A stretch of DNA of 64,000 nt, taken from assembly GCA_035946335.1 (NCBI GenBank), contig DASYZL010000006.1:175664-239663 (forward strand), read 5' to 3'. The notes beneath the pieces were generated by a model. That model made no database searches, was not told where the DNA came from, and saw nothing but the letters and a program-made list of their open reading frames with translations. The stretch is from Patescibacteria group bacterium. GTDB lineage: Bacteria; Patescibacteriota; Microgenomatia; Levybacterales; UBA12049. Position numbers and translations under genes: made by a program. Positions 2,075 to 41,660 of the stretch are shown piece after piece (position 1 is the first letter of the stretch; each line of letters begins with the position of its first letter).

Positions 2075-2105
2075 ATAATAAAGGAAAACCTTTCTGCGTG
2101 AGGTT

Positions 2106-26206: not shown

Positions 26207-27391
26207 CAAAAAATCTCTTATTATAACCGCATGATTCTCTTGTAATACTGAGAAAATCGGAGTATAGACAATTTTAACAATCTTCTTATCTTGCACAATT
26301 AGCTTCTCAAAGAAGAACCGTAGGTAATGGCGTTTAAGGAATTTGGGAGCTTGTAAATATGTAGTATGGATATTTCTGGTAAATGCTAAAACCTCCTCGA
26401 TTAAGTTTACGTCCATATTTGCGCTATTTTCTATCTCCTGAATAAGATTGTTTAAGTTGGTAATCTTATCATTAACTTCTGTGTGCTTGCGTTGGTAGGC
26501 TTCTCTGTCTATTGTGCCGTCAATAACAGCATCTTCAAGTTTATTTCTTTTGATTTCTAATACTGTTTTTTGGTTAATAATACCTTGCTTTTGTGCATCA
26601 ATGGTCCTTCTGTTTTCTGCTACGACATCCTTTGCTTTCTGAACAACTATGTCTATAAATTCTGGGGTAAACTGCATTTTCTCTATTTCTTTTTCAACCT
26701 GTTTTTCCAATGCGTCTGCTTCAACGTAGAGGGCAGGACAGCCGTTTCTATCTCTCTTTTGGCAGTGGTAGTAGTGGATAATGCCTTTTCTCTCAAGAGA
26801 GTTAATCTTGTGCTTATCTGCGGTATATCTTTGACCGCAGTTGGAACAATACATAAACCCTCGCAAAAGGTAGTCATGGGTTCTTTTCCTGACAAGGAAA
26901 TCCCTATGTTTCGCTAAAACATACTGGCAGGTATCGAACAAATCCTTTGTAATAATTGGTGCGTGTTTGCCAATTCTAGACTCTCCATGCCAACGTATTA
27001 TGCCGTAGTAAAAGGGATTTTTGAGAATATTATTTATCACGCTATGTCCAATTATCGTACCAGTTCTTGAGAGTATATTTTTATCAGAAAGCCAATCTTG
27101 CAGTTCGAGAATACTGTGATTGCCAGTAGAATAAATCTCAAACATTTGTTTTATAACTGGTGCTACGTACGGGTCTGGTTCGCATGTTTTCTTTTGGTCT
27201 TCCTCTCCGACACTTCGATAGCCGATATATAAGGGGGACGGTTGCCATCCCTCTCTAAACTTTTGCGCTAAAGCATCTCTTGTTCGTTGTCCGTTTACTT
27301 CGGACTCCCATTCAGCGATAGAAGCCATTAGATTGCCAATTAGTCCGTCAGAAACATCACCTTCCTGAACAGACAGTAGTTTAATTGCCAT
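26195..27391 (-). CDS. Large serine recombinase (integrase), C-terminal segment (recombinase domain, zinc ribbon, coiled coil); out of frame with its N-terminal segment
   Basis: The alpha-E helix region, a Cys cluster (CSNCGQRY...CQKRDRNGC) and a coiled coil are present. The stop codon overlaps the tRNA 3' end. Confidence 0.75.
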   Translation of the reverse strand: MAIKLLSVQEGDVSDGLIGNLMASIAEWESEVNGQRTRDALAQKFREGWQPSPLYIGYRSVGEEDQKKTCEPDPYVAPVIKQMFEIYSTGNHSILELQDWLSDKNILSRTGTIIGHSVINNILKNPFYYGIIRWHGESRIGKHAPIITKDLFDTCQYVLAKHRDFLVRKRTHDYLLRGFMYCSNCGQRYTADKHKINSLERKGIIHYYHCQKRDRNGCPALYVEADALEKQVEKEIEKMQFTPEFIDIVVQKAKDVVAENRRTIDAQKQGIINQKTVLEIKRNKLEDAVIDGTIDREAYQRKHTEVNDKITNLNNLIQEIENSANMDVNLIEEVLAFTRNIHTTYLQAPKFLKRHYLRFFFEKLIVQDKKIVKIVYTPIFSVLQENHAVIIRDFLLRD

Positions 27392-27686
27392 AATTTCTCA
27401 TCTCCTTTCGTATATTCGCAAAATCTCCAACATTCCTGAACAATCTATCTAATTTGTAAAAAATGAGTGCATCAACTGGGTCTTTCTTGAGAAGCGTGAA
27501 CATTTCCTGAAATGCAGGTCTATCAGTTGTTCTTGCGCTTTTTCCGTCATCAGAAAAAATTCTTTTGATTTCATAGCCGTGCATTTTCGCATAATCAACA
27601 CAAGCTCTTTTTTGGTTATCAATAGAGAATCCCTCTTTAGCCTGTTCTTCTGTGCTTACTCTTATATAAATGTAACAAGTTTTCAT
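27381..27686 (-). CDS. Large serine recombinase, N-terminal catalytic (resolvase) segment; a frameshift lies relative to the downstream segment
   Basis: YIRVSTEEQ contains the catalytic Ser, followed by DRLFRN. It overlaps the C-terminal ORF by 11 nt in a different frame. Confidence 0.7.
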   Translation of the reverse strand: MKTCYIYIRVSTEEQAKEGFSIDNQKRACVDYAKMHGYEIKRIFSDDGKSARTTDRPAFQEMFTLLKKDPVDALIFYKLDRLFRNVGDFANIRKEMRNYGN

Positions 27687-27910
27687 ATATTTTCTCCTAA
27701 ATTTTGAAAAGTAATTTTTTTGTATCTCATACTATACTTTCTAGCGATACATTCGCCAGCTTTATTAAGTCTCTCAAGCATTGGTTCAACACGTTTTTTC
27801 GCTTCTTCATACGTTATTGCCTTATGCCTCATGGCAAAATGTAATCCTCTTGCTTCGGCAAGAATTTCTGTTAATTCTTTATCAAGTTTTTTGTTATTAT
27901 CCAGCCTCAT
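27683..27910 (-). CDS. Hypothetical small protein (island ORFan)
   Basis: 75-aa ORF, translationally coupled to the integrase gene. Confidence 0.35.
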   Translation of the reverse strand: MRLDNNKKLDKELTEILAEARGLHFAMRHKAITYEEAKKRVEPMLERLNKAGECIARKYSMRYKKITFQNLGENI

Positions 27911-28033
27911 AATATTATTAGATAATATTATGGACTTTGGACTGCCGAATCAAGGCATTTTTCTACTTTTCTCTCTTAATCTTTTCATTTTTACCTCCTT
28001 ATGCTTCTGCAATCGAGAGGCAAAGTCAAAAGA

Positions 28034-28303
28034 CTATGATTCCAATTTTTGTAACTCTAGCTCAAATTTTTCACTCTCGACCCATTCGCATAGGATTTCC
28101 ATAGACCTGGAATGCAAAGTTGTTACAAGTTCATAAACCAAGCCAGCAAATTTTTTCTTACTTTCCATTGAATATTCTGTAATGTCATACTTTTCAAGTA
28201 TAGCTATTGCTAATGTTATGCTCTTGGTTGCTCTTTCCATTTCTTCCTCATCTATCATTTCTATTTGTTCTTTTTTATTAAGTCTCGATTTCATAATTTT
28301 CAC
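28034..28303 (-). CDS. Hypothetical small protein
   Basis: 89-aa ORF in the island. Confidence 0.3.
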   Translation of the reverse strand: MKIMKSRLNKKEQIEMIDEEEMERATKSITLAIAILEKYDITEYSMESKKKFAGLVYELVTTLHSRSMEILCEWVESEKFELELQKLES

Positions 28304-28380
28304 CTCCTGTCTTTTTCTTTTATTTTTTAACTTCTTATTGAAGCTAATCTGGGAGGATTAGCTTTATATAAAAAGATAAA

Positions 28381-28584
28381 CTAGTCATTATCAAAAGCAT
28401 ACGGTGCAATTCTGTTTTCATATTCTTCCTTTATTTGCTTATCCGTATAATTAAATTCTTCCCAACCTTTCCAACCAGTTCTTGCTATCTCCTCAATCGT
28501 TATATCGTCATTTTTGAACATCTCGACATCAGCTTCCACTAATGCGTCTATCATTTCATCTGTTGTAAGTTTCTTCTTTTTCAT
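28381..28584 (-). CDS. Hypothetical small acidic protein
   Basis: 67-aa ORF. Confidence 0.3.
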   Translation of the reverse strand: MKKKKLTTDEMIDALVEADVEMFKNDDITIEEIARTGWKGWEEFNYTDKQIKEEYENRIAPYAFDND

Positions 28585-28773
28585 ATATTTTCACCCCCTT
28601 TAGGCCCTTCAGATTTAATTTCATTATCATCAATTTTCTTTTGTTCTTTTTGGCTCCTGATGTGGGCAAAAACAATCTTCACCCAAAATTCAGCAATTCC
28701 GTCCAGAGATGTATCTATTGTTTGTAATTTTTCTTGTTGCTCCATAGTATTTATCCTTTCCGCAAAATATCCT

Positions 28774-29049
28774 TTATTTTTTGTTTACTTTCACGTAAAG
28801 AGCAAACAGTTTTCGTAGCAAGCCAGCATCTTTACTAAATTCCAGACGTGGTTTTCCTTTAGAGTTTGTGCGTATATACCCATGGGGCATAGAGTGGATA
28901 TACTCCCTTATCAATCTTGATTGGTCAAAGACAGTAAGTTTTTCTGTTTGGTTTTCGGTAGATTTTCGTATGTAAAGGGCGTATTGAGTTTTATTCATGG
29001 TTCTTGCCTCCTTTACTTGAACGGCTACTTTTGTTTTTAATTTCTCCAA
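28774..29049 (-). CDS. Hypothetical protein; N-terminus resembles a serine-recombinase catalytic N-terminus (possible remnant)
   Basis: The internal sequence MNKTQYALYIRKSTENQTE resembles the YxRVSTxxQ start of resolvases, but the ORF is only about 75-91 aa. Confidence 0.25.
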   Translation of the reverse strand: MEKLKTKVAVQVKEARTMNKTQYALYIRKSTENQTEKLTVFDQSRLIREYIHSMPHGYIRTNSKGKPRLEFSKDAGLLRKLFALYVKVNKK

Positions 29050-29284
29050 GAAGCATGTCTCTTTTTGAAAAGAGTTCTCTTGCAGGAGCGGAAGCGTTGT
29101 TGAGGTATTGGTGTCGCAATTCCTCGCACCTTTCAGGGTTCGAGAGAATGAAGGAAAAGTGATGAAAGTTATCTTCCCGTATGTCGATAAGCTTTATATC
29201 TTTTTGCGTCAGCAAAAAAGCACAAAGAGTTATAGATTCTAAAGTATATGTATTTATTTCCATATTGATTTCTATTGCCGTCAA
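28991..29284 (-). CDS. Hypothetical protein
   Basis: 97-aa ORF. Confidence 0.3.
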   Translation of the reverse strand: MTAIEINMEINTYTLESITLCAFLLTQKDIKLIDIREDNFHHFSFILSNPERCEELRHQYLNNASAPARELFSKRDMLLGEIKNKSSRSSKGGKNHE

Positions 29285-29368
29285 AAGTAAGACAAGCTAG
29301 TAAAAAGGTTATACAATAAATTGAAAAAACTTGCCGTTTAATTAAATGGGGGATTTTTTTTAATGTTT

Positions 29369-30277
29369 CTATGCGTCAGCTATAAGGAGGTCTTTTTTGA
29401 AATTGCTGACTATGGTTCTCACATCGGAATCCGAGAGTTCATATATTTCTTTATCCTTTCTTGTGCTAATAATTTCTACAACTTTATCTTCATGAGATAG
29501 AGATGGAAGTTCTGCGAAATAATCTTCGTTTTCCTTTCTAAAATTTTCCAGTACTTCAGGGTCAGGTGCATTACTTAAAATATTGGCAATTTGCCGAGCG
29601 TTATAGCCTAAAGCATCAAATAAAAACACCTCAACCTCTCTTGTAAATGTTTTAACATTTCTTACTCTATCAATGGGATAGTCATCCAAATATTTTTGGA
29701 TGCCTATAATAGTTTTTTCATTCTTTCTGTAAAATTCTTCAATTCCTGTTGGGGTAGTATCCTTATATATCTGAATATATGCGAAGATTTTGTTATCTTT
29801 TTTTGTTTGGTTTATTCTTCCTCCACCCTGAATTACGATTCGTGCTTTATGCTTAAACTCCTCTTTGGCGACTATTTCCCTTGAATTGATACTTTCTATA
29901 TCTATACATGAGAAGTACAAATAGTCTAGTAAAAACATTCCATAGCTGAGCGGGTCGAGGTCAAACTCAGCGGATAATTCAATTATTAACTTATGAGATG
30001 GTTCTTTCGGAACATCTGGGATTCTTGCGTCTACCCAGTCCTCCCATGTTCCATCTGCTCCTACGTCATCTCTTAATTTCCCGTACCAATCTTGAGGGAT
30101 TTTGAGTTGTTCCCTCAGTTCTTTTATTCTATTTCGGAATCTTGTGTTGAATAAAAGCGGCAAAAGAGCTACATAAAATTCCTGGTCGCTATATGTTATT
30201 TCAGGGCCTATAAACGGTACAATATATAACAAGTCAAGAATATTTTGTCTTAATTCCTTATCTATTTGCTTTTTCAT
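29369..30277 (-). CDS. Hypothetical protein (302 aa), island-encoded
   Basis: Long ORF with no recognisable motifs. Confidence 0.45.
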   Translation of the reverse strand: MKKQIDKELRQNILDLLYIVPFIGPEITYSDQEFYVALLPLLFNTRFRNRIKELREQLKIPQDWYGKLRDDVGADGTWEDWVDARIPDVPKEPSHKLIIELSAEFDLDPLSYGMFLLDYLYFSCIDIESINSREIVAKEEFKHKARIVIQGGGRINQTKKDNKIFAYIQIYKDTTPTGIEEFYRKNEKTIIGIQKYLDDYPIDRVRNVKTFTREVEVFLFDALGYNARQIANILSNAPDPEVLENFRKENEDYFAELPSLSHEDKVVEIISTRKDKEIYELSDSDVRTIVSNFKKDLLIADA

Positions 30278-30353
30278 TTTTTATTTCAATCTGAATCTCT
30301 ATTTATGGTTTGTTTGATTTTAGCACAACCATTATTATGAAGTAAGTTGAGCT

Positions 30354-30779
30354 ATGGCGACTCCGTATAGGAACAACCGCCAGAAACTCCAAGGTTTTAT
30401 GCTCCCATACATCAAAGCTCCACAGATTTTTGAACATCAAAGTTACTTTTTGATATATAATTTACTGGTGGGCTTTGTATTTATAACAATTTTGACTGCT
30501 ATAGTAACATTTACTTGGGTACTTTTAACAAAGAAACAATGGAGAAAAAAGAGTAACCATACAAACTTTAGGAATTATCATATTCATCATAGCGTAGTTG
30601 GTCTTTTGCTCATAGTGATAGGATTTTTCTTTGCACCTTTTTATGGGACAGTTATCTCTGCCGTTGGTTTTGGTCTGTTTGTTTCTCATGGTGTTGAGGA
30701 GCTGTATTTTAACCATGAAAAAATTACTAAAGCATTTTTTATTTTCATAACGAAAGGCAAAGAAAACGATAATATATGA
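30354..30779 (+). CDS. Membrane protein (3-4 TM)
   Basis: Hydrophobic 141-aa ORF overlapping the downstream methyltransferase start. Confidence 0.4.
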   Translation: MATPYRNNRQKLQGFMLPYIKAPQIFEHQSYFLIYNLLVGFVFITILTAIVTFTWVLLTKKQWRKKSNHTNFRNYHIHHSVVGLLLIVIGFFFAPFYGTVISAVGFGLFVSHGVEELYFNHEKITKAFFIFITKGKENDNI

Positions 30780-31417
30780 AAAATTATAAACACGCACCAG
30801 CGCTTATTAACTCATGGCTCACTTCTTTCTATGACCCCGTTATGAATATGTTTGGCGTCGGCACGCTGTTTCAGAAGAAAACATTAGATATTGTAACATT
30901 ACAAGAGGGACAAAAACTTCTCGATATTGGTTGTGGGACAGGAACGCTTGTAATGCTTGTTAAAACGAAACATCCGAAAGCGAAAGTAACAGGATTAGAC
31001 CCTGACCAGCATGTGCTAGCGATTGCAAAGAGAAAAGCAGAAAGAAGTAATCATGCGATTGATTTTATTCAAGCAGGAGCAGAGAAACTTCCATTTGCCT
31101 CAAGTTCATTTGATATTATTACCAGTTCATTAGCATTTCACCATTTACCAACAACAATAAAGAAACAAGCATTGGGAGAAATTTACAGAGTATTAAAACC
31201 AACAGGGCAGTTTCTTCTTGTAGATATTGGGAAACCAAAAAATTTGCTTTGGAAAATACTTCTTGCGATTGAAAGTATTGTTGAACCAAAGGAATATATC
31301 AAAGATAATCTTGAAGGAAAGCTCCCTGCATTTATGATAGAAGCGGGGTTTGCGCTAAAAGAAGTTCGTAAACCTTATTTGAGTATTCAGTTTCTAATGG
31401 GAACAAAAAAGAGTTAA
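30776..31417 (+). CDS. Class I SAM-dependent methyltransferase (UbiE/COQ5-like)
   Basis: Motif I LDIGCGTGTL, motif post-I VTGLD, and an acidic loop. Confidence 0.75.
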   Translation: MKNYKHAPALINSWLTSFYDPVMNMFGVGTLFQKKTLDIVTLQEGQKLLDIGCGTGTLVMLVKTKHPKAKVTGLDPDQHVLAIAKRKAERSNHAIDFIQAGAEKLPFASSSFDIITSSLAFHHLPTTIKKQALGEIYRVLKPTGQFLLVDIGKPKNLLWKILLAIESIVEPKEYIKDNLEGKLPAFMIEAGFALKEVRKPYLSIQFLMGTKKS

Positions 31418-31418
31418 T

Positions 31419-32066
31419 TTATATCGTAGGTTTTCTTATATTATGTTTTTTCATCCATAAGCATAAATTAGCTGGTGTTGTGCGATAACGATTTGAGATA
31501 AACGCTTGTGTCGCTCCGTTGATAAGCAACCCTTCGATTTCTAGTCTGAATTGGTCAAGTTTAGATTTTCCTACTTTGCCTCGTGGTCTTCCTAACACTG
31601 TTCCGTTTAATTTTTTTATTCTCAGTGCCTCAGTCGTCCGTTGTGAAATTAGAGAGCGTTCAATTTCAGAACAAAGGGCAAAAACTGTGCCGATGATTTT
31701 TGACTGCATTGTTCCATCGAGCTTCCAAGCACCCTTGACGCTGAATACGTTAATCTTCTTCCTTGAGCAGATAGAAAGAATTTCAACGATTTCAAGTAAA
31801 CTTCTGCCGAGCCGTGAAATTTCTGCGACAATCAAGTTGTCTCCTTCTTGTAAAACATCAATCAACTCAGATATTTTTCTTTTTTTCCAGCTTACTTTAC
31901 CGCTTATTTTTTCCTCAATAAAGGTCACGTTGCCAAGTTTTAATTCATTAGCAAGGGCTAGGATAGAGGATTTATCTTTCTCTAAATCCTGAGAAGCTTG
32001 ACTAACACGAAGGTAGGAAAGAGTCTGAGAAGTACGATTTTGCTGTTGATTAAGTGAAAACGTCAT
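31419..32066 (-). CDS. Small serine recombinase (resolvase/invertase family) with a C-terminal HTH
   Basis: YLRVSQASQD contains the catalytic Ser. The resolvase fold is followed by a C-terminal HTH. Confidence 0.7.
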   Translation of the reverse strand: MTFSLNQQQNRTSQTLSYLRVSQASQDLEKDKSSILALANELKLGNVTFIEEKISGKVSWKKRKISELIDVLQEGDNLIVAEISRLGRSLLEIVEILSICSRKKINVFSVKGAWKLDGTMQSKIIGTVFALCSEIERSLISQRTTEALRIKKLNGTVLGRPRGKVGKSKLDQFRLEIEGLLINGATQAFISNRYRTTPANLCLWMKKHNIRKPTI

Positions 32067-32189
32067 AAAGTGATTTTTATTATAATGTCTTTTATAGCCA
32101 ATGCAAGCCTTTTTACTTAATGAAACAGAAAAGAAAAATGACCGTTTTTTCTATATGGAGAAGCCATGCTTATTTGTTATACTACACGC

Positions 32190-32729
32190 ATGGCTGACGC
32201 ACGTTCGTATTTGGATACAAGTTTTTTATCGGCACTTATCAGAAGAAACATCCACGACCCATTAGAATTACAAGCGATTATCCGTATTCACTCATTTTGG
32301 GAGCAGGGTTTCATACAGTGTTATGTGAGTGAAGCAGTTAAGAAAGAATTAGAAAAAATACCAGCAAAGTACAAAACACAAAATGACAAATTAGCTGTGT
32401 TATATATGCTTTTGGAAAAAGCGGAGATGTTTCCTACACATCAGATGTTTACCTCTATGTTTGGTGGCGCACCTTTTGGGACAGTTCCTTTTGGTGGAGC
32501 TACGATAGCAAATGACCCGATTTTTCAACAACTATCTGCAATCTTTGATAGAGAAGATGCGGAGCATATTTTTCTTTGTATTAAAAATGGCATCCCATAC
32601 TTTTTGACATACGATGTCCGCACAATATTGAACCGAGCAAGGCAAAACAAAGCCCTTTTGAAAGGATTTGGTATTGAGATTCTTTCCCCGAGAGAATTTG
32701 AAGATACTGTTCTTTCAGGACAAAAATAG
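32190..32729 (+). CDS. PIN-domain protein (putative RNase/toxin)
   Basis: The acidic tetrad is placed as in PIN domains: YLDTSFL, SEAVKKE, DREDAEH and LTYDVRT. Confidence 0.5.
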   Translation: MADARSYLDTSFLSALIRRNIHDPLELQAIIRIHSFWEQGFIQCYVSEAVKKELEKIPAKYKTQNDKLAVLYMLLEKAEMFPTHQMFTSMFGGAPFGTVPFGGATIANDPIFQQLSAIFDREDAEHIFLCIKNGIPYFLTYDVRTILNRARQNKALLKGFGIEILSPREFEDTVLSGQK

Positions 32730-32739
32730 ATTAGTATGT

Positions 32740-33501
32740 ATGAAAAATATACCTCAAGAAAATTATATTATCGGCAAATGTATTTATTGCGGAACTGTTA
32801 ATGACTCGCTCTCCCGTGAACATATTGTCCCATACGGGCTTAATGGAGAATGGATTTTGCAAAAAGCAAGTTGTACTAGATGCTCTGATATTACCTCAAA
32901 ATTTGAACTAAGCGTACTAAAAGGATTATTACCTCAAGCTCGTGCCGCTCTGAAGTATCAAACCAGACATGGACATCCAAAAACTTTCCCTGTCAAGATG
33001 AAGATAGCGGGTCAATGGCAAAAATTTGATATAACTCCTGATGAGTATGGAGCAATTATACTATTTCCGTTATTTAGACAGCCTGCTTATCTGGATAATC
33101 GTTCTCCGTTACAAGGAACTTTGGATATTCTGGGTACTGGGATGCACAGGCTAGGTGGTACTGATATGAGTATTCTACACAAAAAATATAATGCTGAAAG
33201 CATTGATTTCAGATTTGAATTTGACCCAGGTGCTTTTCTTAAGCTGTTGGCAAAGGTGGCATACGGGTATGCAGTACTATACTACGGCTTGGATGTATTC
33301 GATAAAATATACGCACTCCCTATAATAATGGGACAAACTGACGAAGTTGACCGTTGGATTGGAAGTGAAAAATCTTCAATAGGAAATGAGGAGGTTTCTA
33401 TTGTTTTGCATCAGACAGGGAAAGACCTTATCGCAAAAATACGACTTTTTGGGAAACGAGAAGTCCCAACCTATATTGTTGTAGTGGGTTCAATAAAGTA
33501 A
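32740..33501 (+). CDS. HNH endonuclease family protein
   Basis: CIYCG...SREHIVPYGLNGEW...CTRC forms a CxxC...H...N...CxxC beta-beta-alpha-Me motif. It lies immediately downstream of the PIN gene. Confidence 0.65.
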   Translation: MKNIPQENYIIGKCIYCGTVNDSLSREHIVPYGLNGEWILQKASCTRCSDITSKFELSVLKGLLPQARAALKYQTRHGHPKTFPVKMKIAGQWQKFDITPDEYGAIILFPLFRQPAYLDNRSPLQGTLDILGTGMHRLGGTDMSILHKKYNAESIDFRFEFDPGAFLKLLAKVAYGYAVLYYGLDVFDKIYALPIIMGQTDEVDRWIGSEKSSIGNEEVSIVLHQTGKDLIAKIRLFGKREVPTYIVVVGSIK

Positions 33502-33605
33502 GTATTTAGGCATTTTACTTTGGTGGAATGTGGTGTAGTTGAAGGCAGTTAGGGATAGTTCCTGAAGCTAAAAATAATGTCCATAGTTGTTCGGTTGCAC
33601 CAAAA

Positions 33606-33626
33606 TGGTGTAATTTGGATTACACC
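33606..33626. terminator. Bidirectional hairpin terminator between the convergent HNH and XRE genes
   Basis: Perfect 8-bp stem GGTGTAAT-ttgg-ATTACACC. Confidence 0.4.
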
Positions 33627-33642
33627 AGAATAATATTGATTA

Positions 33643-33870
33643 TCACTCAAGCAACTCAGACATTTTTACTCCTAAATATCGTGCAATTTTATCAAGCGTA
33701 GCTATTGATGGGTTTCGGACGCCTTGTTCGATAAAGCCAAGGTAAACAGGTGTTATCCCGATTTTCTCCGCCATTATTACTTGGGAAACATCCTTATCTT
33801 GTCTTAGCTGCTGTATTTTCTTTCCAACACTTTTTGGGATACGAGAATAATATTTTTTCCCTTTTGTCAT
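33643..33870 (-). CDS. XRE-family HTH transcriptional regulator
   Basis: QQLRQDKDVSQVIMAEKIGITPVYLGFIEQG HTH. Confidence 0.75.
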   Translation of the reverse strand: MTKGKKYYSRIPKSVGKKIQQLRQDKDVSQVIMAEKIGITPVYLGFIEQGVRNPSIATLDKIARYLGVKMSELLE

Positions 33871-33905
33871 GCTCGTATTATCGAACTTAAGCGTGACGAT
33901 GTATC

Positions 33906-33967
33906 CAAACTATTTGTTTGAGTTTGTGGTATAATTAGGCATAAGAATTACTCAAACTGTATGTTTG
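33906..33967. promoter_or_regulatory. Divergent promoter region with two CAAAC-N5-GTTTG operator palindromes flanking a TATAAT -10 box
   Basis: CAAACtatttGTTTG at 33906..33920 and CAAACtgtatGTTTG at 33953..33967. TATAAT lies at about 33930..33935. Confidence 0.5.
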
Positions 33968-33983
33968 AGTAATGGAATAACTT

Positions 33984-34283
33984 ATGAATCACACATTCAC
34001 AACAAAAACGTGGGGAGGAAATAAGCCTGTTTCTGATGTGATACTCATTATTGTTTTTATTTTAAGCGTAATACTTATGATAAGTATTATTGGAGCGCCA
34101 ATAGGAGTAATTCTGCTCTTTTTTCCCTTATCGGAGTATATGGTAAATATGAGAACGATTTGTCCTTCTTGTAAGAAAAGGGTTTCTGTCTTTAGAAGCG
34201 CTAAAGCGTTTTCTTGTTATAACTGTCAAAGAGTAATGGTCAAGAAAAATAATCAGTGGGTGATAATGCCTGAAGACAAATGA
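33984..34283 (+). CDS. Small membrane protein with a zinc-ribbon (CxxC...CxxC)
   Basis: TM segment followed by CPSCKK...CYNCQ. Confidence 0.45.
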   Translation: MNHTFTTKTWGGNKPVSDVILIIVFILSVILMISIIGAPIGVILLFFPLSEYMVNMRTICPSCKKRVSVFRSAKAFSCYNCQRVMVKKNNQWVIMPEDK

Positions 34284-34311
34284 GAGGGAATTACCAGTAT
34301 TTACGAATAGT

Positions 34312-35484
34312 CTAATTCAAGAAATTATTTCCTTTTCCTAAATTACATTTTTCGCAAAGCGTCTGCAAGTTTTCAAATATTGTTCTTCCGCCTTTTGAAA
34401 ATGGTACTTTATGGTCAATGTGTAGTCGGCATTGAGAATCTGTTGCTGGACTTGCTCCGCATTTCACACACTTGAAGTTATCTCTACTTAAAATTTTGTA
34501 CCGTAAACCGAGACCTACTTCTCTTTTTTCAACAATTAAAGTATTTGCTGTTTGTTTTATTATTTCTACAGTTTTTGTTGTTTTGGATTTAATGTCAGTG
34601 GGTTTTTCATGTTCTATAATTTCTTCAAATTCTTTTTCTTCTTGGTTCATTCTCACCACAAATGCCTCAAGTGCTTTACGCCAACTACCAAAATGTCCTT
34701 TATAAGTATTTGCTTTAATCTTTGATGGCTGAATGTCCATCTCTCCATACTTTGGTTGTCTTCCATAGCGTGTCCAAACAGTTAATAAATTCTCAAAATA
34801 TTCTTCGTCGGAATATGCCCGATTATATTTTTCAGAGATTTTTAATCCTGCTTTTTCCATAGCAGTAGCCCATGTACCAAATCGACGAGTTGCAACTCCC
34901 ACACTCATAACATTAGAGTAATGTCTTACATCTTCGTGGCTTACTGATTCCGTATTGAGCAACTTGGCAATTCTTTTTAGCTCATCAAGTACGTCTTGAT
35001 TTGTTAATGATTTTGCTTTTGGCTTACGCATGTTCTCTGTAATGATTGTTCCAGAATATTTATGACCAACACCTGCTTTTTCTAACGCTTGCTGCCATCC
35101 ACCAAAACGACTAATAAAAGTACCTGAGCTAATTTCACTATGTTGGTCAAAGTCCTTTCTTCTTATGACTTTCACATCAAGTGCTTCTGCAACTCTTTTT
35201 AATTCCTTGAGTACTTCTTGGTCTGTTAGCTGTTGCGCCTTTTGCAAGCGCATTTTATCTGTAATTTCTGTACCAATGTATTTATGTCCCAATCCAGCAG
35301 TAGTGAGTGCATTTTCCCAACTGCCAAATCTAAGTTTTACTCCGTCAGAACTCATTTTTGCGTGCTTGTTGTAATCAGTTTGAGTTAGCTTTTCCTTACC
35401 GACTAATACATCAACACGTTTTATTTCTGCAATAACATCTTCATCAGGGCAATTCCTCGGTAAATTGCTTAATTCAAATTTCAT
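34312..35484 (-). CDS. HNH endonuclease with four N-terminal homing-endonuclease-associated (HNH) repeats
   Basis: There are four repeats of about 60 aa (FGSWENALTTAGLGHKY / FGGWQQALEKAGVGHKY / FGTWATAMEKAGL / FGSWRKALEAF). The C-terminal core is CVKCG...HIDHKVPFSKGG...CEKCN. Confidence 0.75.
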   Translation of the reverse strand: MKFELSNLPRNCPDEDVIAEIKRVDVLVGKEKLTQTDYNKHAKMSSDGVKLRFGSWENALTTAGLGHKYIGTEITDKMRLQKAQQLTDQEVLKELKRVAEALDVKVIRRKDFDQHSEISSGTFISRFGGWQQALEKAGVGHKYSGTIITENMRKPKAKSLTNQDVLDELKRIAKLLNTESVSHEDVRHYSNVMSVGVATRRFGTWATAMEKAGLKISEKYNRAYSDEEYFENLLTVWTRYGRQPKYGEMDIQPSKIKANTYKGHFGSWRKALEAFVVRMNQEEKEFEEIIEHEKPTDIKSKTTKTVEIIKQTANTLIVEKREVGLGLRYKILSRDNFKCVKCGASPATDSQCRLHIDHKVPFSKGGRTIFENLQTLCEKCNLGKGNNFLN

Positions 35485-35561
35485 AGCTATTTTTCACTTC
35501 CTACTATTATATCATTAGCTTTTCAAGGCTAGAAAAGGATAAATAGTAATGTCGGAAGTGT

Positions 35562-36359
35562 TTATTTTCTAAGAAGGTTAATCGAGGGTTTTCCTAACAT
35601 TGGAGTTAATTCACTAAAAGAACTGTCTAATGTTGTTACTGTAAGATGCTTCGGACAATCAGTAGCAATAACAACGTCTCCGATAGCTTTATTTATTGGA
35701 TATTTATTTGCGTTTTTCACATCTTTTTCAATTTCTACTAATTTTGCATATATCTTATTTATCACTTTTGATTTATCAAAGACGTCTTTATTTGAGAGTA
35801 ATTTTTTTAATTCTTCTATGTGTGCCTTCCAAAAAACATCTAATGGTATTGATTTTCGGCTATTGTAAGCATCAACAAACGGCTCGTAATCATCTTTACT
35901 TCTTAATTTGAATCTGACTATCTCATCTCCTGCAAAATCTCCCACCATGCTTAGTAAATCAGTATCAAAGTTATTAACTAAATTAAAAATTACTGCCTCT
36001 ATTTGCCTTAAATATTTTGCGGTATCTTGGGTAGGGATGGATTTGTTCACACTTGCCATTATTGCCTGTAAAATATGAATATTCTTTAATTCTCTTTTCC
36101 CGTACTTTTTAGACCACCAAGCCAAAGCAAGAGAAGGACTATCAAGAAGTTTCACACGATAATAAAATTCTACCATGTTTCTTATAAAGCCTGTCTTAAA
36201 TTCATAGAGGACAAAATGAGAGGAATATAAGACGCTATTTTGCGGTAACAATCTCAGGATACTCCCATCCTTATCAGGCACAAATTTGCTTATTTGAATG
36301 GATGTTTCTAGGAGTAATCGTGTGCTTTTATCAGTTTTCTTCTTTTTGTTTTTTGCCAT
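35562..36359 (-). CDS. Hypothetical protein (265 aa), third gene of a three-gene operon
   Basis: Overlaps the upstream gene by 29 nt. No recognisable motif. Confidence 0.45.
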   Translation of the reverse strand: MAKNKKKKTDKSTRLLLETSIQISKFVPDKDGSILRLLPQNSVLYSSHFVLYEFKTGFIRNMVEFYYRVKLLDSPSLALAWWSKKYGKRELKNIHILQAIMASVNKSIPTQDTAKYLRQIEAVIFNLVNNFDTDLLSMVGDFAGDEIVRFKLRSKDDYEPFVDAYNSRKSIPLDVFWKAHIEELKKLLSNKDVFDKSKVINKIYAKLVEIEKDVKNANKYPINKAIGDVVIATDCPKHLTVTTLDSSFSELTPMLGKPSINLLRK

Positions 36360-36912
36360 GATTATTAGTGCCTTTCAACAAATACATTTTCTTCCTATAC
36401 AGTTGCTTTGAGAACATTGATAGACCATCCCAATTTACTTCACCCTCATTAAACCTCTTTAACTCTGTTTGGAAATATTTAATGTCTTTTTTATCCATTG
36501 TTTCCCAGTTATTATTCTCAAATAGTAATTCGAGCATGGATAATAAAATCCTTGTCTCTGATTTTTGGGTTAAATAATCAGCGTTTTCTTGTAGTAAGTC
36601 TTTGATATTACTGATATGTGCCAATGCGTCTTCTGTCTCCAAATTTTCCCAGGCAGAAAGTTCGTCATTTATCTTTTTTATTAAGGCATAGGTATTGTAG
36701 GAGATGTAATTACTAGAGTAATTTGTTCTGTAATATATGTTATTGTCTCCGTTTTCGCCAATCGAATGTATCGCAGGGTTTTGTGAAGAAATTTTTGTCA
36801 TTTCGTCAACATCCTTCTCAGGTGCTTTAGGCAAATATTGAGAATTGTCCTTAAAGTATTCCTCTAAGTTTACTGCTGTTTGTTGAAAAGTATATGAAGA
36901 TGCTATGCTCAT
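36331..36912 (-). CDS. Hypothetical protein (193 aa), second gene of a three-gene operon
   Basis: Overlaps the upstream gene by 4 nt (ATGA coupling). Confidence 0.45.
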   Translation of the reverse strand: MSIASSYTFQQTAVNLEEYFKDNSQYLPKAPEKDVDEMTKISSQNPAIHSIGENGDNNIYYRTNYSSNYISYNTYALIKKINDELSAWENLETEDALAHISNIKDLLQENADYLTQKSETRILLSMLELLFENNNWETMDKKDIKYFQTELKRFNEGEVNWDGLSMFSKQLYRKKMYLLKGTNNHGKKQKEEN

Positions 36913-37616
36913 AATGTTTGAATATAACCAAGATAATCTTTTGTTACTCGTAAATTTTCTTTAATTGCTTTGTCTAATTTTTCTAATGTGTTTTCGGCAG
37001 TGAGTCCACCCTCAATAAATATTGACACATCAATAAACAGATTACTGTCTTTAATATCTGTTTTATTATCTGGATAACTGCTATTAAAAGCCTTGATACC
37101 TTGGTCTTTCTTTACTGGCCCTATTTGCACATGATTAAGAAAACCATTTTTTGAGCCATCCAATACAAAAACAGAATCTCTTGGTGTATCTGCTGATATA
37201 TTTTTTACATCTTCATTTTGTGCGTAGAATTTTTTATATATTAATTCTACAAGTTCATTAAATTCAAAACTTGCTTCAAGAACTTGAGTGTGTCTCACTT
37301 CAAGTCTTCGGATTTGATTAACGCCAAGTTCTTTTGTGCTTTTGGTAAATATCTTGCTAATATAGTCATATAGTTCTTTAGTATCGTTCTTTCCTTCGTT
37401 CAAATAGGTAATAGTATCGAAAGTAATTTGTAAGATTTTCTTTTCGGAGGGAGAGTATAATGCAATATCTTCGTGTTTTTGTGCCGCCCATTCTTCAAAC
37501 TTATCTTCAACACCTGCGGCAAGAGAAGCGGTGCTATCAAATGTTTTAATTGTAGGACGGAATTTCACTTGTCCTACGATTCGATGTAGTTTTTCCGTTA
37601 AAAAGGTTTTAGCCAT
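36909..37616 (-). CDS. Hypothetical protein (235 aa), first gene of a three-gene operon
   Basis: Preceded by a perfect TATAAT -10 box. Confidence 0.45.
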   Translation of the reverse strand: MAKTFLTEKLHRIVGQVKFRPTIKTFDSTASLAAGVEDKFEEWAAQKHEDIALYSPSEKKILQITFDTITYLNEGKNDTKELYDYISKIFTKSTKELGVNQIRRLEVRHTQVLEASFEFNELVELIYKKFYAQNEDVKNISADTPRDSVFVLDGSKNGFLNHVQIGPVKKDQGIKAFNSSYPDNKTDIKDSNLFIDVSIFIEGGLTAENTLEKLDKAIKENLRVTKDYLGYIQTL

Positions 37617-37699
37617 ATCTATCTCAATCTAGGTCGCTATTATACCCCAATCAGCTTCAAAAGTAAAAAATACAATGATGCTCTACATATAATCTATCA

Positions 37700-38175
37700 T
37701 AATTTGTAAAAAACAAGATAGTAAGGTTTAATTATTTTTCTCCGACCTGCCGTACAGCTCCTAGCGCTTTATTTAGCGTTCGTTTCTGCTGAACTGATAT
37801 AAAGAGATAGTTCTTGATTTTTCTACTGTCCTGAGCTAAATGGCTGTTTTTATCTCAAAAGTATAACCGTTAGACTTTCTTCGCAAGAAGGTTATAGAAA
37901 ATCCTCATATAATTTCCAATGTAGCAATATTAACTTACCAGCCTCAAATTTACGGTTGATAGGTATGTCCACCTCTGCACCATAGTCCCTAACCTACACT
38001 CCTAGCCTCCTCTCTACGATACATATAAGAGATATTTTTTGGCAGATGCTTGGCTATCTTCCCTGTATGTATCGTAATATAGGCATGAAGCAGTGAATTA
38101 GAGGCTAGGGAGGTCATACATACCAGCCGTTCTTTTGTGCCTGAAATTTTATTTTAGTTACATTGTCAAAGAACA
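37700..38175. other. ORF-free structured region of about 480 bp (candidate ncRNA or replication origin)
   Basis: Nested long-range inverted repeats CCTAGCCTCC...GGAGGCTAGG and CGATACATA...TATGTATCG, plus a GNRA-capped hairpin TATAACC...CTTCgcaaGAAG...GGTTATA. Confidence 0.4.
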
Positions 38176-39543
38176 TTATTCATTATCCTGTGCTTCAAGG
38201 CAAGTCGGGATACCAAGTTCATCAATCGTTTGCTGTGCGGTTGAAATAATCATGTTCTTCCAGTACTGCTTTGACTCTTTTTGTGCAAACTGTACAGAGA
38301 AGCCGTCATGTTGCCATAGAACTATTTTGAAGGTACGCTTGCTTTTGTTCTGAATGGCGAGGTCAATCACGTCTGCCAGCAGTAGCATTTCCATAGACTG
38401 GGCGAGTTGGGCTAAAATGCTTCTGTGCGAGAAATCCTTGAGAGACAAGAATCTTCCGTAGCAATCAGTTGCACCGCCATTACCAGACATTTTGCTGAAT
38501 TGTTCAGTACGAGCCTTCCACATGAAATTGATAATCGGGTGGGAAATAAAGCGGTTAAAAGAATTATCACCAATCGGGGAGAGGATTTCTTTAATCTTTT
38601 TTTGTCCTGCTCCGTACATCATAGCATACAGACTTCTTTTGAATATTTCTTTTGTTTTGTCGTTTAGTTCAATCCCAAAAGTTGTAAATAAATCTTTCCA
38701 AATAGAATTGCCTTCTTTGAGATAGTGTTCTACCTCTGGAATAGTCCACAATTTAGAAGCGATTGCCAACTGGCATGATTTCAAATCAAATTCTGTCCAG
38801 CCTTTAGTTAGGGCGTGGCGTATATCCCTCTGCAAATAACAAATATTTTCGCTGAATGGATATATCCTTACTGATTTTTTTACAGGAGCGTAAAGAGGCT
38901 TGTATTCGTCTTGAATGGCTCTAAGCAAATCGAGTTGATTGTCGGCATCCTCTTGTTGGAGTGCGACTGCTTTTGCCTTTGGCATATTGACCATCATTTC
39001 TTGAAAAGTGCGGACTGGGAGGTTGTTCATATACGCAATAATCTCTTTTGCGCTCTGAACACCCGCATTACTCATTTGCTTCATCGCTTCCTTGTAATTC
39101 AAGTCTCGGAGCTGTTGCTGTTTATACTGAGTAAATGGTTCTCCATCTCTCAAATATACTCTGCCTGTATTTTCCCATAGGCCCTGTCGTTCATTGGCTA
39201 TTGCCTCAAGAACTTCTGCATCCCAACGGCATGTTTTAACGACCCTGCATCTGCCTTCGATATAAGAATAATCCGACCACTCGAAATGATGTACGTTACG
39301 GGAAAACTCAATAAGAAAATCAATCGAGCGATAGTTTTTGTTCTCAATCATGTAATATTTTCCTTCGCATTGTGCGATTAACTCCCAAGGAATTTTTACA
39401 TACCCTGTTTCCCACTCACGAAAACCGAATATAAGATGTCCGATAAAATTCCAGTACGCAGGGTTATTCCCCAGCGTAGGAAAATTTCGTTTGAGTATGT
39501 CCCGAAACATAGGCGAGACCGTCCTATTGGTTATTATCATCAT
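38176..39543 (-). CDS. Family A (T7-like) DNA polymerase-like protein, polymerase domain only; motif A E to Q, motif C HDE to HDG
   Basis: Motif A EFDLKSCQLAIASKL (T7: DASGLELRCLAHF). Motif B KRSLYAMMYGAGQKKI (T7: KTFIYGFLYGAGDEKI). Motif C VLWQHDGFSV (T7: AWVHDEIQV). No exonuclease domain. Start taken at MMIITN. Confidence 0.5.
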   Translation of the reverse strand: MMIITNRTVSPMFRDILKRNFPTLGNNPAYWNFIGHLIFGFREWETGYVKIPWELIAQCEGKYYMIENKNYRSIDFLIEFSRNVHHFEWSDYSYIEGRCRVVKTCRWDAEVLEAIANERQGLWENTGRVYLRDGEPFTQYKQQQLRDLNYKEAMKQMSNAGVQSAKEIIAYMNNLPVRTFQEMMVNMPKAKAVALQQEDADNQLDLLRAIQDEYKPLYAPVKKSVRIYPFSENICYLQRDIRHALTKGWTEFDLKSCQLAIASKLWTIPEVEHYLKEGNSIWKDLFTTFGIELNDKTKEIFKRSLYAMMYGAGQKKIKEILSPIGDNSFNRFISHPIINFMWKARTEQFSKMSGNGGATDCYGRFLSLKDFSHRSILAQLAQSMEMLLLADVIDLAIQNKSKRTFKIVLWQHDGFSVQFAQKESKQYWKNMIISTAQQTIDELGIPTCLEAQDNE

Positions 39544-39880
39544 GGCACTTCTGGAAAAATGAAGGTGGCAGTGCCATGACACGCAGAACACTAACGCACG
39601 TATAAAAAACCTTTGGGTTTTTCGGTAGTCTCGATTTCTATGTGGATTTAGTAGTTTCTATTTTTATTTCGATTTGCTACACTGCCAACATGACTGCTGG
39701 ATGGTTAATTTGCAATTTTTTAATCTCAAGCCATCGTTGCCTGAGTTCGCCAATGTACCGTAAATCCTGAAATGCCTGAATGATTGAGGTAAAATCTATA
39801 GTTAGAGTGAGCCAAGGCTGGGGGAGCAAATTAGTCCTGTAGTTTTATTCTAATTTTGTTTACTTCAAATATCCTCTTTT

Positions 39881-40192
39881 TTATCTCTTTATTCCCTGTT
39901 TATTGAGCACATATTGCACCGAAGGGCTTATTTGCTTATCCGTGCGGTGAATACAACCAAGCCAACAACAAGGTCGGCGCATTCCTTCTTTCAGTTCTGT
40001 GCGCACTCGTTCAACATGTTGCTTTCTGGTTTCCGGTTTTTTAACAAAGGTTGCCCAACAAATCCATTCATTGCGAGCAAGTGGCGTAAGGCTTTCCCAT
40101 GTTGCGAGCGCTTTTGAGTCAGAAGTCAAAACTTCCCGTAAATCCGCTGGAACTTTATGCACTGTACCGTCTGAAATATCTTTTTTAGTCAT
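39881..40192 (-). CDS. YdeI/OmpD-associated (DUF1905-like) family protein
   Basis: LTPLARNEWICWATFVKKPETRKQHVERV is characteristic of the family. Confidence 0.5.
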   Translation of the reverse strand: MTKKDISDGTVHKVPADLREVLTSDSKALATWESLTPLARNEWICWATFVKKPETRKQHVERVRTELKEGMRRPCCWLGCIHRTDKQISPSVQYVLNKQGIKR

Positions 40193-40506
40193 AAGGTTAT
40201 TATAACAAATCTTCTAGAACTAGAAATGGAGCTGGTAAATTGAGACTAGAGTATAGTATCTTCAACTCATCAAGTATGACATCAACTCAAGTTCTCTGTT
40301 GATGAATGAGTCCTTTATGGGAGCAAGTGATATATTTATGTCCGAGGGAAAGATATTACGTACTAATCTAAAACGCTTTCTTTATTTTTTTCTTACATAG
40401 TTTTAGCAGATTTAGTCTATAATTTTCGCTATGCAAAATATAGAGAAGGCATTGGAACTCATTACACGCAAATCCCATAACAATCCGTCGAGAAGCACTC
40501 CGTTAT

Positions 40507-41175
40507 TTGCTTTTCGGCAGCTTAGCAGTCGTTTTATATGGGTGTAGGACTATCCCAGAACAGCCTGATAGAGAGTTGATTGCCAATGCAGTATGGGATA
40601 TTGTTACCCAGCAAGACGATCACATCAACCTCGGTGCTCAGTTGATACTACAACATATGAATATGGGAAGACTACATACTATTGACCTGACAGCATCGTC
40701 ATATAACGGCAGTGTCAAAGATACAACATTCAACCCTAACGGATTTCCCATTGTTGCTTTGCAGCAAGTACGTGTTGCAAACGGCAAAGTGCTTCCGCTA
40801 CAGGAAAATAGACGCGTTATGATAACAAATCTTCCTAGCGGCAATGTTGATATTCTGTTTACAGTTCTGCTGCTTACCCCAGTGATACGACAATCAACCA
40901 GCCTTCTATTCCAGTTGGAATACCTGTTATATATCGAGTCGATGTTCACGGAAAAGAGCAGGGGATGTCCATCGATCAACTTAATGTTGCTAATGGTGTC
41001 CAATTTACCCGCCAACCTCAAACCTCTACCATATTACAGATTCCCTTTCCACAGTAGGAGGATTTCTCAACCATCTTCAAAGTTTCGGTTATGTGATTAT
41101 AGGGTAGAAGGTATTAGAACAAAACATATGTTTCTTCAGATTTATTCTTGCTGGTATTCTACAATTCGTGCATAA
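40507..41175 (+). CDS. Hypothetical protein (possibly degraded; low support)
   Basis: 222-aa ORF with an antisense shadow ORF. A 38-aa out-of-frame ORF lies upstream. Confidence 0.2.
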   Translation: MLFGSLAVVLYGCRTIPEQPDRELIANAVWDIVTQQDDHINLGAQLILQHMNMGRLHTIDLTASSYNGSVKDTTFNPNGFPIVALQQVRVANGKVLPLQENRRVMITNLPSGNVDILFTVLLLTPVIRQSTSLLFQLEYLLYIESMFTEKSRGCPSINLMLLMVSNLPANLKPLPYYRFPFHSRRISQPSSKFRLCDYRVEGIRTKHMFLQIYSCWYSTIRA

Positions 41176-41213
41176 AAGGGTAAATAGCATCTAATCATTG
41201 AAGCAAATTAATC

Positions 41214-41660
41214 TCAATTCTTATTTTTTACTGATATTTCATTACCACCTATAACTATACTTGCTGCGATTAGCACAAAATTTTTTATAACAAATTCTCC
41301 ATTACTGGTTAAGAAAAACAGGTTATGGGAAAAGTAGAGAAATGGTGATATGAAAAATCCTGCAAAAATGCCTCCCATTTGAAGCCATAAAAGTAGAAGA
41401 GTAAAACGCAAGGTACTTTTTATCAGTAATCCAATACCAATAATTATTTCCCACACCCCTAAAATGGTGATAAATAACGGTTCTGGGAAAGAAGGATACG
41501 TGGAAACTATTAAGTCATGCACAGGGCTTGCATTAATTACCTTCAACGCTCCAAACCACAAGTAAACCACAGCAAGAGAAATACGCAACAATATAAATCC
41601 GTATTTATGCATAGTCTGTATAACAGATACATCAAATTTCTCAAGATTTCTTTTTGGCAT
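41214..41660 (-). CDS. DoxX/YkgB(DUF417)-like small membrane protein
   Basis: 148 aa with 4 TM segments and a YkgB-like topology. Confidence 0.4.
   Translation of the reverse strand: MPKRNLEKFDVSVIQTMHKYGFILLRISLAVVYLWFGALKVINASPVHDLIVSTYPSFPEPLFITILGVWEIIIGIGLLIKSTLRFTLLLLWLQMGGIFAGFFISPFLYFSHNLFFLTSNGEFVIKNFVLIAASIVIGGNEISVKNKN

Follow-up and report, generated by a model that had tools for sequence, protein, structure and literature searches.

A gene of a Patescibacteria group bacterium, located at positions 38176-39543 (minus strand) of a 64,000-nucleotide stretch of contig DASYZL010000006.1 (the whole stretch analysed, hereafter the window), raises the question of whether it encodes a DNA polymerase and, if so, which role such an enzyme would play. 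A preliminary description, made from the nucleotide sequence, had proposed that this gene encodes an exonuclease-less family-A DNA polymerase-like protein with substitutions in motifs A and C, lying next to a large structured non-coding region, and had considered either a replication module or a nucleic-acid-synthesising accessory system. Our analysis confirmed that the protein is an exonuclease-less minimal family-A polymerase with a small N-terminal domain. It is probably the replication gene, namely a primase-polymerase of the TV-Pol (Transposon-Virus polymerases) class, of an integrative mobile element.

The initial reading of the motifs needed a real test because the standard libraries see nothing in this protein. 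Pfam had no family for it, DNA_pol_A remaining without a match even at E<=1, and the PADLOC, PHROG and NCBIfam searches, run on the polymerase and its neighbours, returned no model for the polymerase. No match to PDB sequences was obtained by phmmer with the single sequence, and a profile of 18 sequences retrieved there, as its sole match, motif B of Pol nu with an E of 0.39. A tblastn search of the phage collection gave nothing, either with the window protein or with its Nostoc homologue as query, and BLAST against the plasmid collection gave two distant matches to the polymerase.

Fold and catalytic motifs of the polymerase

The structure was predicted with AlphaFold (AF2), using 17 homologues as alignment. 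The full-length model reached a pLDDT of 91.4 and a pTM of 0.86, and the top 50 Foldseek matches in the PDB were all family-A polymerases (best E 7e-9, probability 1.0), including Klenow, Taq, Bst, Aquifex, mycobacterial Pol1, apicoplast Pol and Pol theta. The viral fold matches from BFVD were likewise PolA, unnamed entries aside. The TM-scores stayed at ~0.45, as the target structures include exonuclease domains and the query an N-terminal domain of its own. According to the secondary structure of the model and to the hhalign alignment with Klenow residues 661-919, the thumb-palm-fingers core spans residues ~136-455 (38176-39138, minus strand).

Residues 1-135 (39139-39543, minus strand) form a compact alpha/beta accessory domain, for which a separate model had a pLDDT of 90.5. 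A fold search of the PDB with this domain gave no significant match (best E 0.6) and no exonuclease even among the weak matches. The exonuclease-less character put forward in the preliminary description is thus borne out. The weak list consisted mostly of winged-helix proteins, i.e., plasmid Rep initiators, ORC and MarR, which hints, and only hints, that the modelled domain is possibly winged-helix-like. Its conserved residues are R14, P22, A57, R100, V129 and G134. We consider it a candidate equivalent of the N-terminal domain found in some TV-Pols (TV-PolN), and not an exonuclease.

The catalytic motifs were then located by profile alignment. With the profile of 164 family members, hhalign aligned the protein to Klenow 518-928 with a probability of 84% and an E of 7.6e-6, over 232 collinear columns covering Klenow 661-919; hence the motif matches are not spurious. 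In the motif 2 region, SVRIYPFSENICYLQRDIR (38818-38874, minus strand), which aligns with Klenow TGRLSSTDPNLQNIP, R226 lies on a beta-hairpin, whose strands are residues 218-220 and 227-229 in the model, and corresponds to Klenow R668; the same region contains R242. Motif A, D253-LKSCQLAI (38761-38787, minus strand), aligns with Klenow DYSQIELRI, so that D253 corresponds to the catalytic D705 and Q258 to E710, the steric gate. The Glu-to-Gln change at this position, as initially described, is therefore real. Motif B, or O-helix, K298-EIF-K302-RSL-Y306-AMM-Y310-G311 (38611-38652, minus strand), was aligned to T7 gp5, Klenow and Pol nu, with K298 equivalent to Klenow R754, K302 to K758, Y306 to F762 (T7 Y526) and Y310 to Y766. 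Q382 of motif 6 corresponds to Klenow Q849. Finally, motif C, Q411-H412-D413-G414 (38302-38313, minus strand), carries the catalytic D413 and aligns H412-D413-G414 with Klenow H881-D882-E883 (H653-D654-E655 in T7), which places a Gly at the position of Klenow E883 and bears out the second substitution reported from the letters.

The resemblance of motif B to that of T7 DNA polymerase had been noted in the preliminary description, and the T7 motif strings quoted there were checked on the T7 record. Using the 18-sequence family alignment, hhalign related the protein to T7 gp5 from motif B through the C-terminus (E 3.4e-4), with K302/Y306/Y310 in register with K522/Y526/Y530 and H412-D413 with H653-D654, so this match is not due to chance. 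The spacing of the motifs is close as well, with 49 residues from motif A to motif B vs 47 in T7, and 42 residues from motif C to the end vs 50.

The gene itself is an intact open reading frame (ORF) of 455 codons in the ORF list, and its frame stays open upstream to a GTG at 39591. Homologues start at the position of MMIITNRTVS, following the pattern M-x-I-x-x-R-T-V-S. The NCBI protein of the same locus (P0002, from a Patescibacteria group bacterium metagenome-assembled genome) is 391 aa long and was called from an internal Met; this start is 64 codons too late and cuts off half of the conserved N-terminal domain. Compared with an 86%-identical relative (L041), the substitutions are distributed over the codon positions as 51/33/171, showing purifying selection on the polymerase gene.

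A large family with a fixed catalytic signature

A word-indexed search had found 18 relatives, and an exhaustive HMM search was used to retrieve the full family. It yielded 1,798 clusters (50% identity) at E<1e-3, of which 1,085 remained at E<1e-30; the best 150 clusters listed are almost all full-length proteins of ~420-650 aa. Conservation was counted on the alignment of 164 diverse members, to which all of the following counts refer. R226, D253, W282, K298, K302, Y306 and E385 are invariant (164/164), and near-invariance is observed for D413 (163), G414 (163), R242 (162), G311 (162) and Q382 (161). Both catalytic Asp residues are thus retained, as the preliminary description had stated, and this strict conservation implies that the catalytic machinery is under strict selection. 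At the steric-gate position 258, Gln is present in 157 sequences, His in 7 and Glu in none, while position 310 is occupied by Phe in 89 sequences and by Tyr in 72. The two substitutions are therefore not peculiar to the window gene but constitute the fixed signature of a family of ~1,800 clusters. Judging from this alignment, both Glu residues were lost long ago and their absence is fixed across the family; it does not reflect decay of the window copy.

The lack of the motif-A Glu (E710) and of the motif-C Glu (E883), together with the absence of a Pfam DNA_pol_A match, could also be expected from a catalytically inactive polymerase-like protein whose fold is kept for DNA binding or regulation. 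We regard this as hardly credible, since the metal-binding Asp pair, the O-helix Lys and Tyr and the equivalents of R668 and Q849 are essentially invariant, as for an active enzyme. Besides, neither Glu is present in T7 RNA polymerase, which is nonetheless active.

The same two positions bear on the nucleotide that is used. The motif-A Glu discriminates against ribonucleotides, and a relaxed sugar selectivity, as proposed in the preliminary description, is plausible given the Gln or His that replaces it. Taken further, the signature could belong to a mainly RNA-synthesising enzyme, i.e., a single-subunit RNA polymerase for the genes of the element, or an RNA primase. Such an activity would account for the Gln/His at the E710 position in 164/164 sequences and the Gly at the E883 position in 163/164; G542 of T7 RNA polymerase stands at the same offset from D537, the H811-D812-S813-F-G of that enzyme resembles QHDGF, and an RNA-primer activity was proposed for ancestral TV-Pol-like enzymes (Iyer et al., PMC2579912). 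However, hhalign against T7 RNA polymerase gave an E of 0.49 and no RNA polymerase figured in the top 50 PDB matches. The protein is half the size of T7 RNA polymerase and has no promoter-recognition or specificity-loop elements. Moreover, Y306 is invariant, like Y526 of T7 DNA polymerase, and the equivalent of T7 RNA polymerase Y639 varies between Phe and Tyr, which argues against selection of the 2'-OH by that residue. A mainly RNA-synthesising enzyme is therefore very unlikely.

In public annotation, members of the family are named "hypothetical protein" and have no model in standard domain libraries. One divergent branch (~500 aa) is labelled "Clp protease N-terminal domain-containing protein" in RefSeq; its loci (L008 of Polaromonas pH8NP1, L028, L029, L031 and L037) are small betaproteobacterial plasmids or circular contigs, where a five-gene arrangement with RepA, ParA and a resolvase is conserved.

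Genomic context of the relatives

The neighbourhood of the gene was compared in 39 loci taken from assemblies, GTDB genomes and plasmids, whose ORFs were clustered to count recurrent neighbours. Only two neighbour families recur widely, namely serine recombinases (14/39 loci) and tyrosine integrases (12/39). No helicase, recognisable SSB (a protein binding single-stranded DNA) or nuclease gene is consistently linked to the polymerase across these loci, most of which carry no other replication gene. A large serine recombinase (LSR) adjoins the polymerase in L041, L042 and L045, and in L041 it lies directly upstream. Close relatives share a fixed module, in which the genes of the LSR and of an excisionase-like HTH_17 protein face away from a series of genes in the opposite orientation, encoding successively a 265-aa protein, a 64-aa protein, a DUF5659 protein, the polymerase and a 93-aa protein, after which comes an XRE-type regulator.

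Other relatives belong to viruses and plasmids. In a Nostoc prophage (L001), the polymerase is flanked by a pRha+ANT(KilAC) protein on one side and an integrase on the other, an arrangement that mirrors the Bro-N/KilA-C, TV-Pol and resolvase element described previously (PMC2579912). The polymerase is carried by 8 viral contigs of IMG/VR, and divergent versions occur on small betaproteobacterial plasmids with RepA and ParA. The hosts include Gammaproteobacteria, Betaproteobacteria, Verrucomicrobiota, Bacteroidota/Rhodothermota, Chloroflexota, Armatimonadota, Cyanobacteria, Deinococcota and, here, Patescibacteria. Of the two options left by the preliminary description, the replication module is favoured by this context, since the relatives are found next to a serine or tyrosine recombinase in integrative elements, in prophages and on small plasmids.

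Some loci carry additional genes. In L003/L010 (169-2278) and in the JGI contig of P0005, TIR_2 and PycTM genes occur within a few kb of the polymerase, and are likely defence cargo of the same islands. On one phage-like contig (L004/L005, 10368-14297), a Pnkp/Hen1 RNA-repair gene pair is found 1 kb from the polymerase.

A proposed integrated island at the tRNA-Asn gene

In the window, the polymerase and a recombinase gene occupy the two ends of a region of ~13.6 kb (26203-39830), which we propose to be an integrated mobile island. The GC content is 0.33-0.37 over ~26-38 kb vs ~0.38-0.44 in most flanking windows. An 8-bp direct repeat, GGAGCAAA, is present at 26203-26210, where it shares 4 nt with the end of the tRNA-Asn gene, and again on the plus strand at 39823-39830; these copies are the proposed left and right junctions. 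A blastn block matches window positions 37889-39822 to L041 positions 2090-4047 with 80.5% identity, and covers the polymerase with 280 bp upstream and 287 bp downstream. The homology with L041 begins exactly at the inner edge of the right repeat, and in L041 this point adjoins the stop codon of the LSR. In addition, the polymerase of L043 is followed by a 72-aa gene, a homologue of which lies at 27686-27901, beside the recombinase of the window. From the repeats, the edge of the L041 homology and the position of this homologue, we infer the limits of the island. On the excised circle, the recombinase and the polymerase would become neighbours, as they are in L041, and the predicted attP/attB junction sequences are GAGATTTTTTGCTCCCCCAGCCTTGG and CCTAGTCGCGGAGCAAATTAGTCCTG. 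Searches of the window revealed neither a further copy of the tRNA 3' end nor long terminal repeats.

The recombinase (26195-27686, minus strand) is of the large serine type, with Pfam matches to Resolvase, Recombinase and Zn_ribbon_recom, and its last codons overlap the 3' end of tRNA-Asn. It is split into a 101-aa ORF (27381-27686) and a 398-aa ORF (26195-27391) by a frameshift near 27390, in the resolvase catalytic domain, and tblastn with the L041 recombinase matches two different frames in the window. The split gene is either a pseudogene or the result of an assembly error.

The tRNA-Asn(GUU) gene at the left junction (25917-26206, plus strand), which is missed by ARAGORN, carries a 220-nt group I intron (~25951-26170; Rfam RF00028, 107 bits) in its anticodon, inserted between U35 and U36. 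Its exons were defined by a near-identical, intron-less tRNA-Asn on a metagenome contig (L047, 5694-5766), and the internal guide of the intron, AGCTTCC, pairs with the end of the 5' exon, GGAAGCT.

Between its two ends, the island carries a set of cargo genes recognised by Pfam. They encode an HNH endonuclease with four homing endonuclease associated repeats (34312-35484, minus strand), a second, weak HNH_5 match (32668-33501, plus strand), a PIN-domain protein (32166-32729, plus strand), a small resolvase (31419-32066, minus strand) and a SAM methyltransferase (30776-31417, plus strand). Three overlapping co-directional ORFs of 235, 193 and 265 aa (35562-37616, minus strand) lie beyond the hairpin that follows the polymerase gene. 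They gave no significant library match (best Ago_MID_bact, E 0.25) and had no homologues in the other clustered loci; they are probably island cargo too. Just outside the proposed island, the stretch 40193-41213 contains only overlapping TTG-start ORFs on both strands, with no Pfam or Rfam match, and could represent either the remains of a gene or a feature that escaped annotation.

Non-coding DNA and small ORF flanking the polymerase gene

A conserved non-coding block (37889-38175, minus strand) lies downstream of the polymerase, within the region matched by blastn in L041, and is partly conserved in L043. Just 3' of the gene, it contains a long imperfect hairpin of ~180-220 nt (37951-38130, minus strand). 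This hairpin is 86% identical to that of L041 over 190 columns, with conserved arms and a variable apical loop, and it folds better than shuffled sequences, with a z of -3.2 in the window (37925-38145) and of -5.4 in L041. L043 keeps the apical hairpin alone, its overall fold not being significant (z 0.45). A covariance model of the hairpin retrieved only the window and L041 among 44 loci, and a permissive-threshold Rfam search of 37500-41300 returned nothing, including for the hairpin. We propose the hairpin as a candidate for an origin or a regulatory element.

The large structured non-coding region announced by the preliminary description is thereby reduced to this one hairpin. Indeed, neither the entire 559-nt spacer downstream of the gene (z -1.3) nor the 1-kb gene-poor stretch at 40200-41190 (z -0.01) is more structured than shuffled sequences. 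No iteron-like repeats stood out in the non-coding regions.

On the other side, just upstream of the polymerase, a small conserved ORF of 47-50 codons (39677-39829, minus strand) has its TTG start inside the right 8-bp repeat. Compared with L041, it shows 15 synonymous and 5 non-synonymous codon changes, distributed over the codon positions as 7/1/15. By this substitution pattern, it carries a clear coding signature and is under purifying selection. It has no Pfam match. In L041, the ORF has no canonical start codon and overlaps the stop of the recombinase in another frame. On the predicted excised circle, it would be fused in frame to the recombinase ORF (DFLL followed by PQPW; 26198-26215). 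It may encode the true C-terminus of the recombinase, although the 47-aa peptide had no similarity to the C-termini of intact recombinase relatives.

The structured element adjoining the gene, the nucleases and the PIN protein of the island, the TIR_2 and PycTM genes near relatives (L003 and the JGI contig) and an SMC/AAA ATPase in L042 could together evoke an anti-phage defence or accessory system that makes a nucleic-acid product, as retrons and defence-associated reverse transcriptases do. This was in essence the second option of the preliminary description. Nevertheless, PADLOC gave no match, no partner gene is conserved across the loci, where only recombinases recur, and no family-wide non-coding RNA was found, the hairpin being limited to the closest relative. 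The gene is also found on small plasmids and in prophages, and defence genes are common cargo of such islands. A defence or accessory function is thus highly improbable.

Probable membership of the TV-Pol class

The TV-Pols were defined computationally by Iyer, Abhiman and Aravind in 2008 as nuclease-free, minimal family-A cores with a coiled-coil thumb, a beta-hairpin bearing an invariant Arg, two palm Asp residues, and fingers marked by an RxxxK motif and a conserved Asp (PMC2579912). A subset of them possesses the N-terminal TV-PolN domain, predicted to be all-helical, and is encoded beside resolvases, integrases, transposases or Bro-N/KilA-C proteins and at integration hot spots; from this gene context, TV-Pols were predicted to be primase-polymerases (PMC2579912). 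The window family resembles them in several respects. No nuclease domain is fused to the window protein and none is consistently adjacent, the hairpin Arg (R226) and the palm Asp residues (D253 and D413) are conserved as counted above, a basic-xxx-K motif begins the fingers helix, and an extra N-terminal domain is present. The neighbours are likewise gamma-delta-type resolvases, lambda-type integrases, transposases and Bro-N/KilA-C-type proteins, and the two distributions overlap in Bacteroidota, Verrucomicrobiota, Proteobacteria and Cyanobacteria. The host of the window belongs to the Patescibacteria, or candidate phyla radiation (CPR), a group not in the 2008 list.

A direct comparison was made with the Microcystis phage Ma-LMM01, which is named in the TV-Pol paper (PMC2579912). 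Its gp030 is a 506-aa hypothetical protein (L040, 22746-24266, minus strand) encoded beside IS605-type transposases, and from this position it is probably the TV-Pol meant by these authors. The word-indexed search gave 6 relatives of gp030, and the motifs of this family are GLRxYE, NYDxxKCHATIA, KTAxLAxxNGA and NxQHDGA, with a His at the steric-gate offset. The two families aligned by hhalign with an E of 6.6e-5 and a probability of 64% over 299 columns, from residue 75 onwards, thus taking in part of the N-terminal domain, and with the motifs in register; both share the R-hairpin, D..K..[QH]..IA, K...L/Y...G and QHDG. The HMM of the 164 family members gave no significant match to the gp030 sequence, and the gp030 family gave none to T7 gp5 (hhalign E 0.58), though motif B was aligned. 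The window family fits the TV-Pol class, in its subset with an N-terminal domain, an assignment that is supported but not proven by one presumed member and the shared features.

Proposed role in the replication of the element

The probable role of this minimal polymerase, as the replication gene of the island, can be outlined as follows. The LSR would excise the island and release a circular element, which the polymerase would both start replicating and copy. To this end, the enzyme would act as a combined primase-polymerase, an activity predicted for TV-Pols from their context and shown for the related CcPol-MP. The N-terminal domain might supply DNA or origin binding, and the conserved flanking DNA, including the hairpin 3' of the gene, would be a candidate start site. 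In the most speculative step, the Gln/His at the steric gate and the Gly of motif C would create a more open pocket for the initiating nucleotide and/or for ribonucleotides. The analogy with primases was drawn because the gene occupies a primase/Rep slot beside a recombinase, with few other replication genes and with conserved flanking DNA.

The experimental precedent comes from CcPol of SCCmec, which by itself extends primers and, in complex with MP, a protein of the OB fold, primes de novo using dNTPs; this is the only experimental proof of de novo priming by a PolA fold (PMC7581432, PMC10061031). According to the CcPol authors in 2020, no other TV-Pol had been characterised (PMC7581432). 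Alternatively, the window protein could be a primer-dependent DNA polymerase only, which would carry out strand-displacement or repair-type synthesis of the element. Its primer would be supplied by the host primase, by a transcript, by nicking through a recombinase or nuclease, or by the 3' end of the fold-back hairpin. Such a role would be in line with the behaviour of CcPol alone, with the structural matches, every one of which is a primer-dependent family-A DNA polymerase, with the DNA-polymerase-like character of Y306 (F762/Y526) and Y/F310 (Y766), and with the long hairpin that adjoins the gene. Instead, the slot of the gene beside integrase and excisionase-like HTH genes, held by primase or Rep genes in comparable integrative elements, and the lack of another replication gene in most loci argue for an initiating enzyme; besides, an elongating polymerase alone would give the element little over the host Pol I. 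We therefore consider a strictly primer-dependent role unlikely.

Several observations nevertheless weigh against the assignment to a TV-Pol-class replication gene of a mobile element. With regard to the class, the link depends on the assumed identity of gp030, and the profile probability is only 64%. The fingers carry K298xxxK302 (both Lys 164/164) instead of RxxxK, with no conserved Asp among the tabulated fingers positions, and, by its published description, TV-PolN would be an all-helical domain, unlike the modelled alpha/beta N-terminal domain, which has no significant structural match. With regard to the island, its borders are deduced, and the empty-site scan matched two metagenome contigs that share the tRNA alone and not the flanks. 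Because the recombinase is frameshifted, the window copy may no longer excise or replicate. As for the start site, the consensus fold of the hairpin comprises 62 pairs, of which 0 have changes on both sides, and a hairpin restricted to one lineage cannot be the origin used by the whole family. Finally, the primase activity is put forward from context and analogy only, and the CcPol operon includes the OB-fold MP and the Cch2 helicase, whereas no such partners are recognised by sequence as conserved beside the window family.

This last difference leads to a more ambitious version of the primase-polymerase role, in which a single polypeptide of the Pol I fold would be self-sufficient. The winged-helix-like domain would read the origin (the hairpin or the flanks), the opened pocket would hold the initiating nucleotide, perhaps a ribonucleotide, and neither a helicase, nor an SSB, nor the host primase would be needed. 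We hold this to be possible, though doubtful.

To our knowledge, almost all primases belong to the DnaG or archaeo-eukaryotic primase (AEP) types, and the only proven exception with a Pol I fold, CcPol-MP, is dependent on its partner. If the self-sufficient enzyme exists, it would represent a third primase lineage, present in many bacterial phyla including Patescibacteria. The protein, 455 aa long and well modelled, also provides a test case for the features that permit or prevent de novo initiation by a family-A polymerase, for the role of the steric-gate residue when it is naturally Gln or His, and for the replication of small integrative islands after excision, including in the ultra-small CPR bacteria. 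In practice, a profile model of the family would improve the annotation of mobile elements. What is new here is the CPR/Patescibacteria host and a family far larger than the word-indexed search implied; the basic picture drawn in 2008 is unchanged.

Comparison with known systems

The window protein shares with Klenow and T7 gp5 its fold and motifs 2, A, B, 6 and C, which are collinear and similarly spaced. It differs from them by the lack of 3'-5' and 5'-3' exonuclease domains, by a core of ~320 aa vs ~410, by the replacement of E710 by Gln/His and of E883 by Gly, and by a sequence too dissimilar for Pfam DNA_pol_A.

The lack of a steric-gate Glu is a feature in common with T7 RNA polymerase, as is the shape of motif C (IHDSFG vs QHDGFS here). 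However, the window protein is far smaller and has neither the promoter-binding N-terminal domain nor the specificity loop. A close affinity with RNA polymerases was rejected because hhalign showed no relationship to T7 RNA polymerase, as given above.

As for CcPol-MP, both systems rely on a family-A domain encoded at the primase position of an island moved by LSRs, with no working proofreading domain. Unlike the window protein, CcPol is identified as PolA in standard domain searches. It has no TV-PolN-type N-terminal domain, and the CcPol-like PolA-SSB pairs described so far are from Bacillota only (PMC10061031).

Finally, AEP prim-pol enzymes and piPolB (family B) have unrelated or distantly related folds and are functional analogues only. 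They nevertheless share the niche of the window polymerase, that of a single self-contained replication gene beside an integrase in small integrative elements and plasmids.

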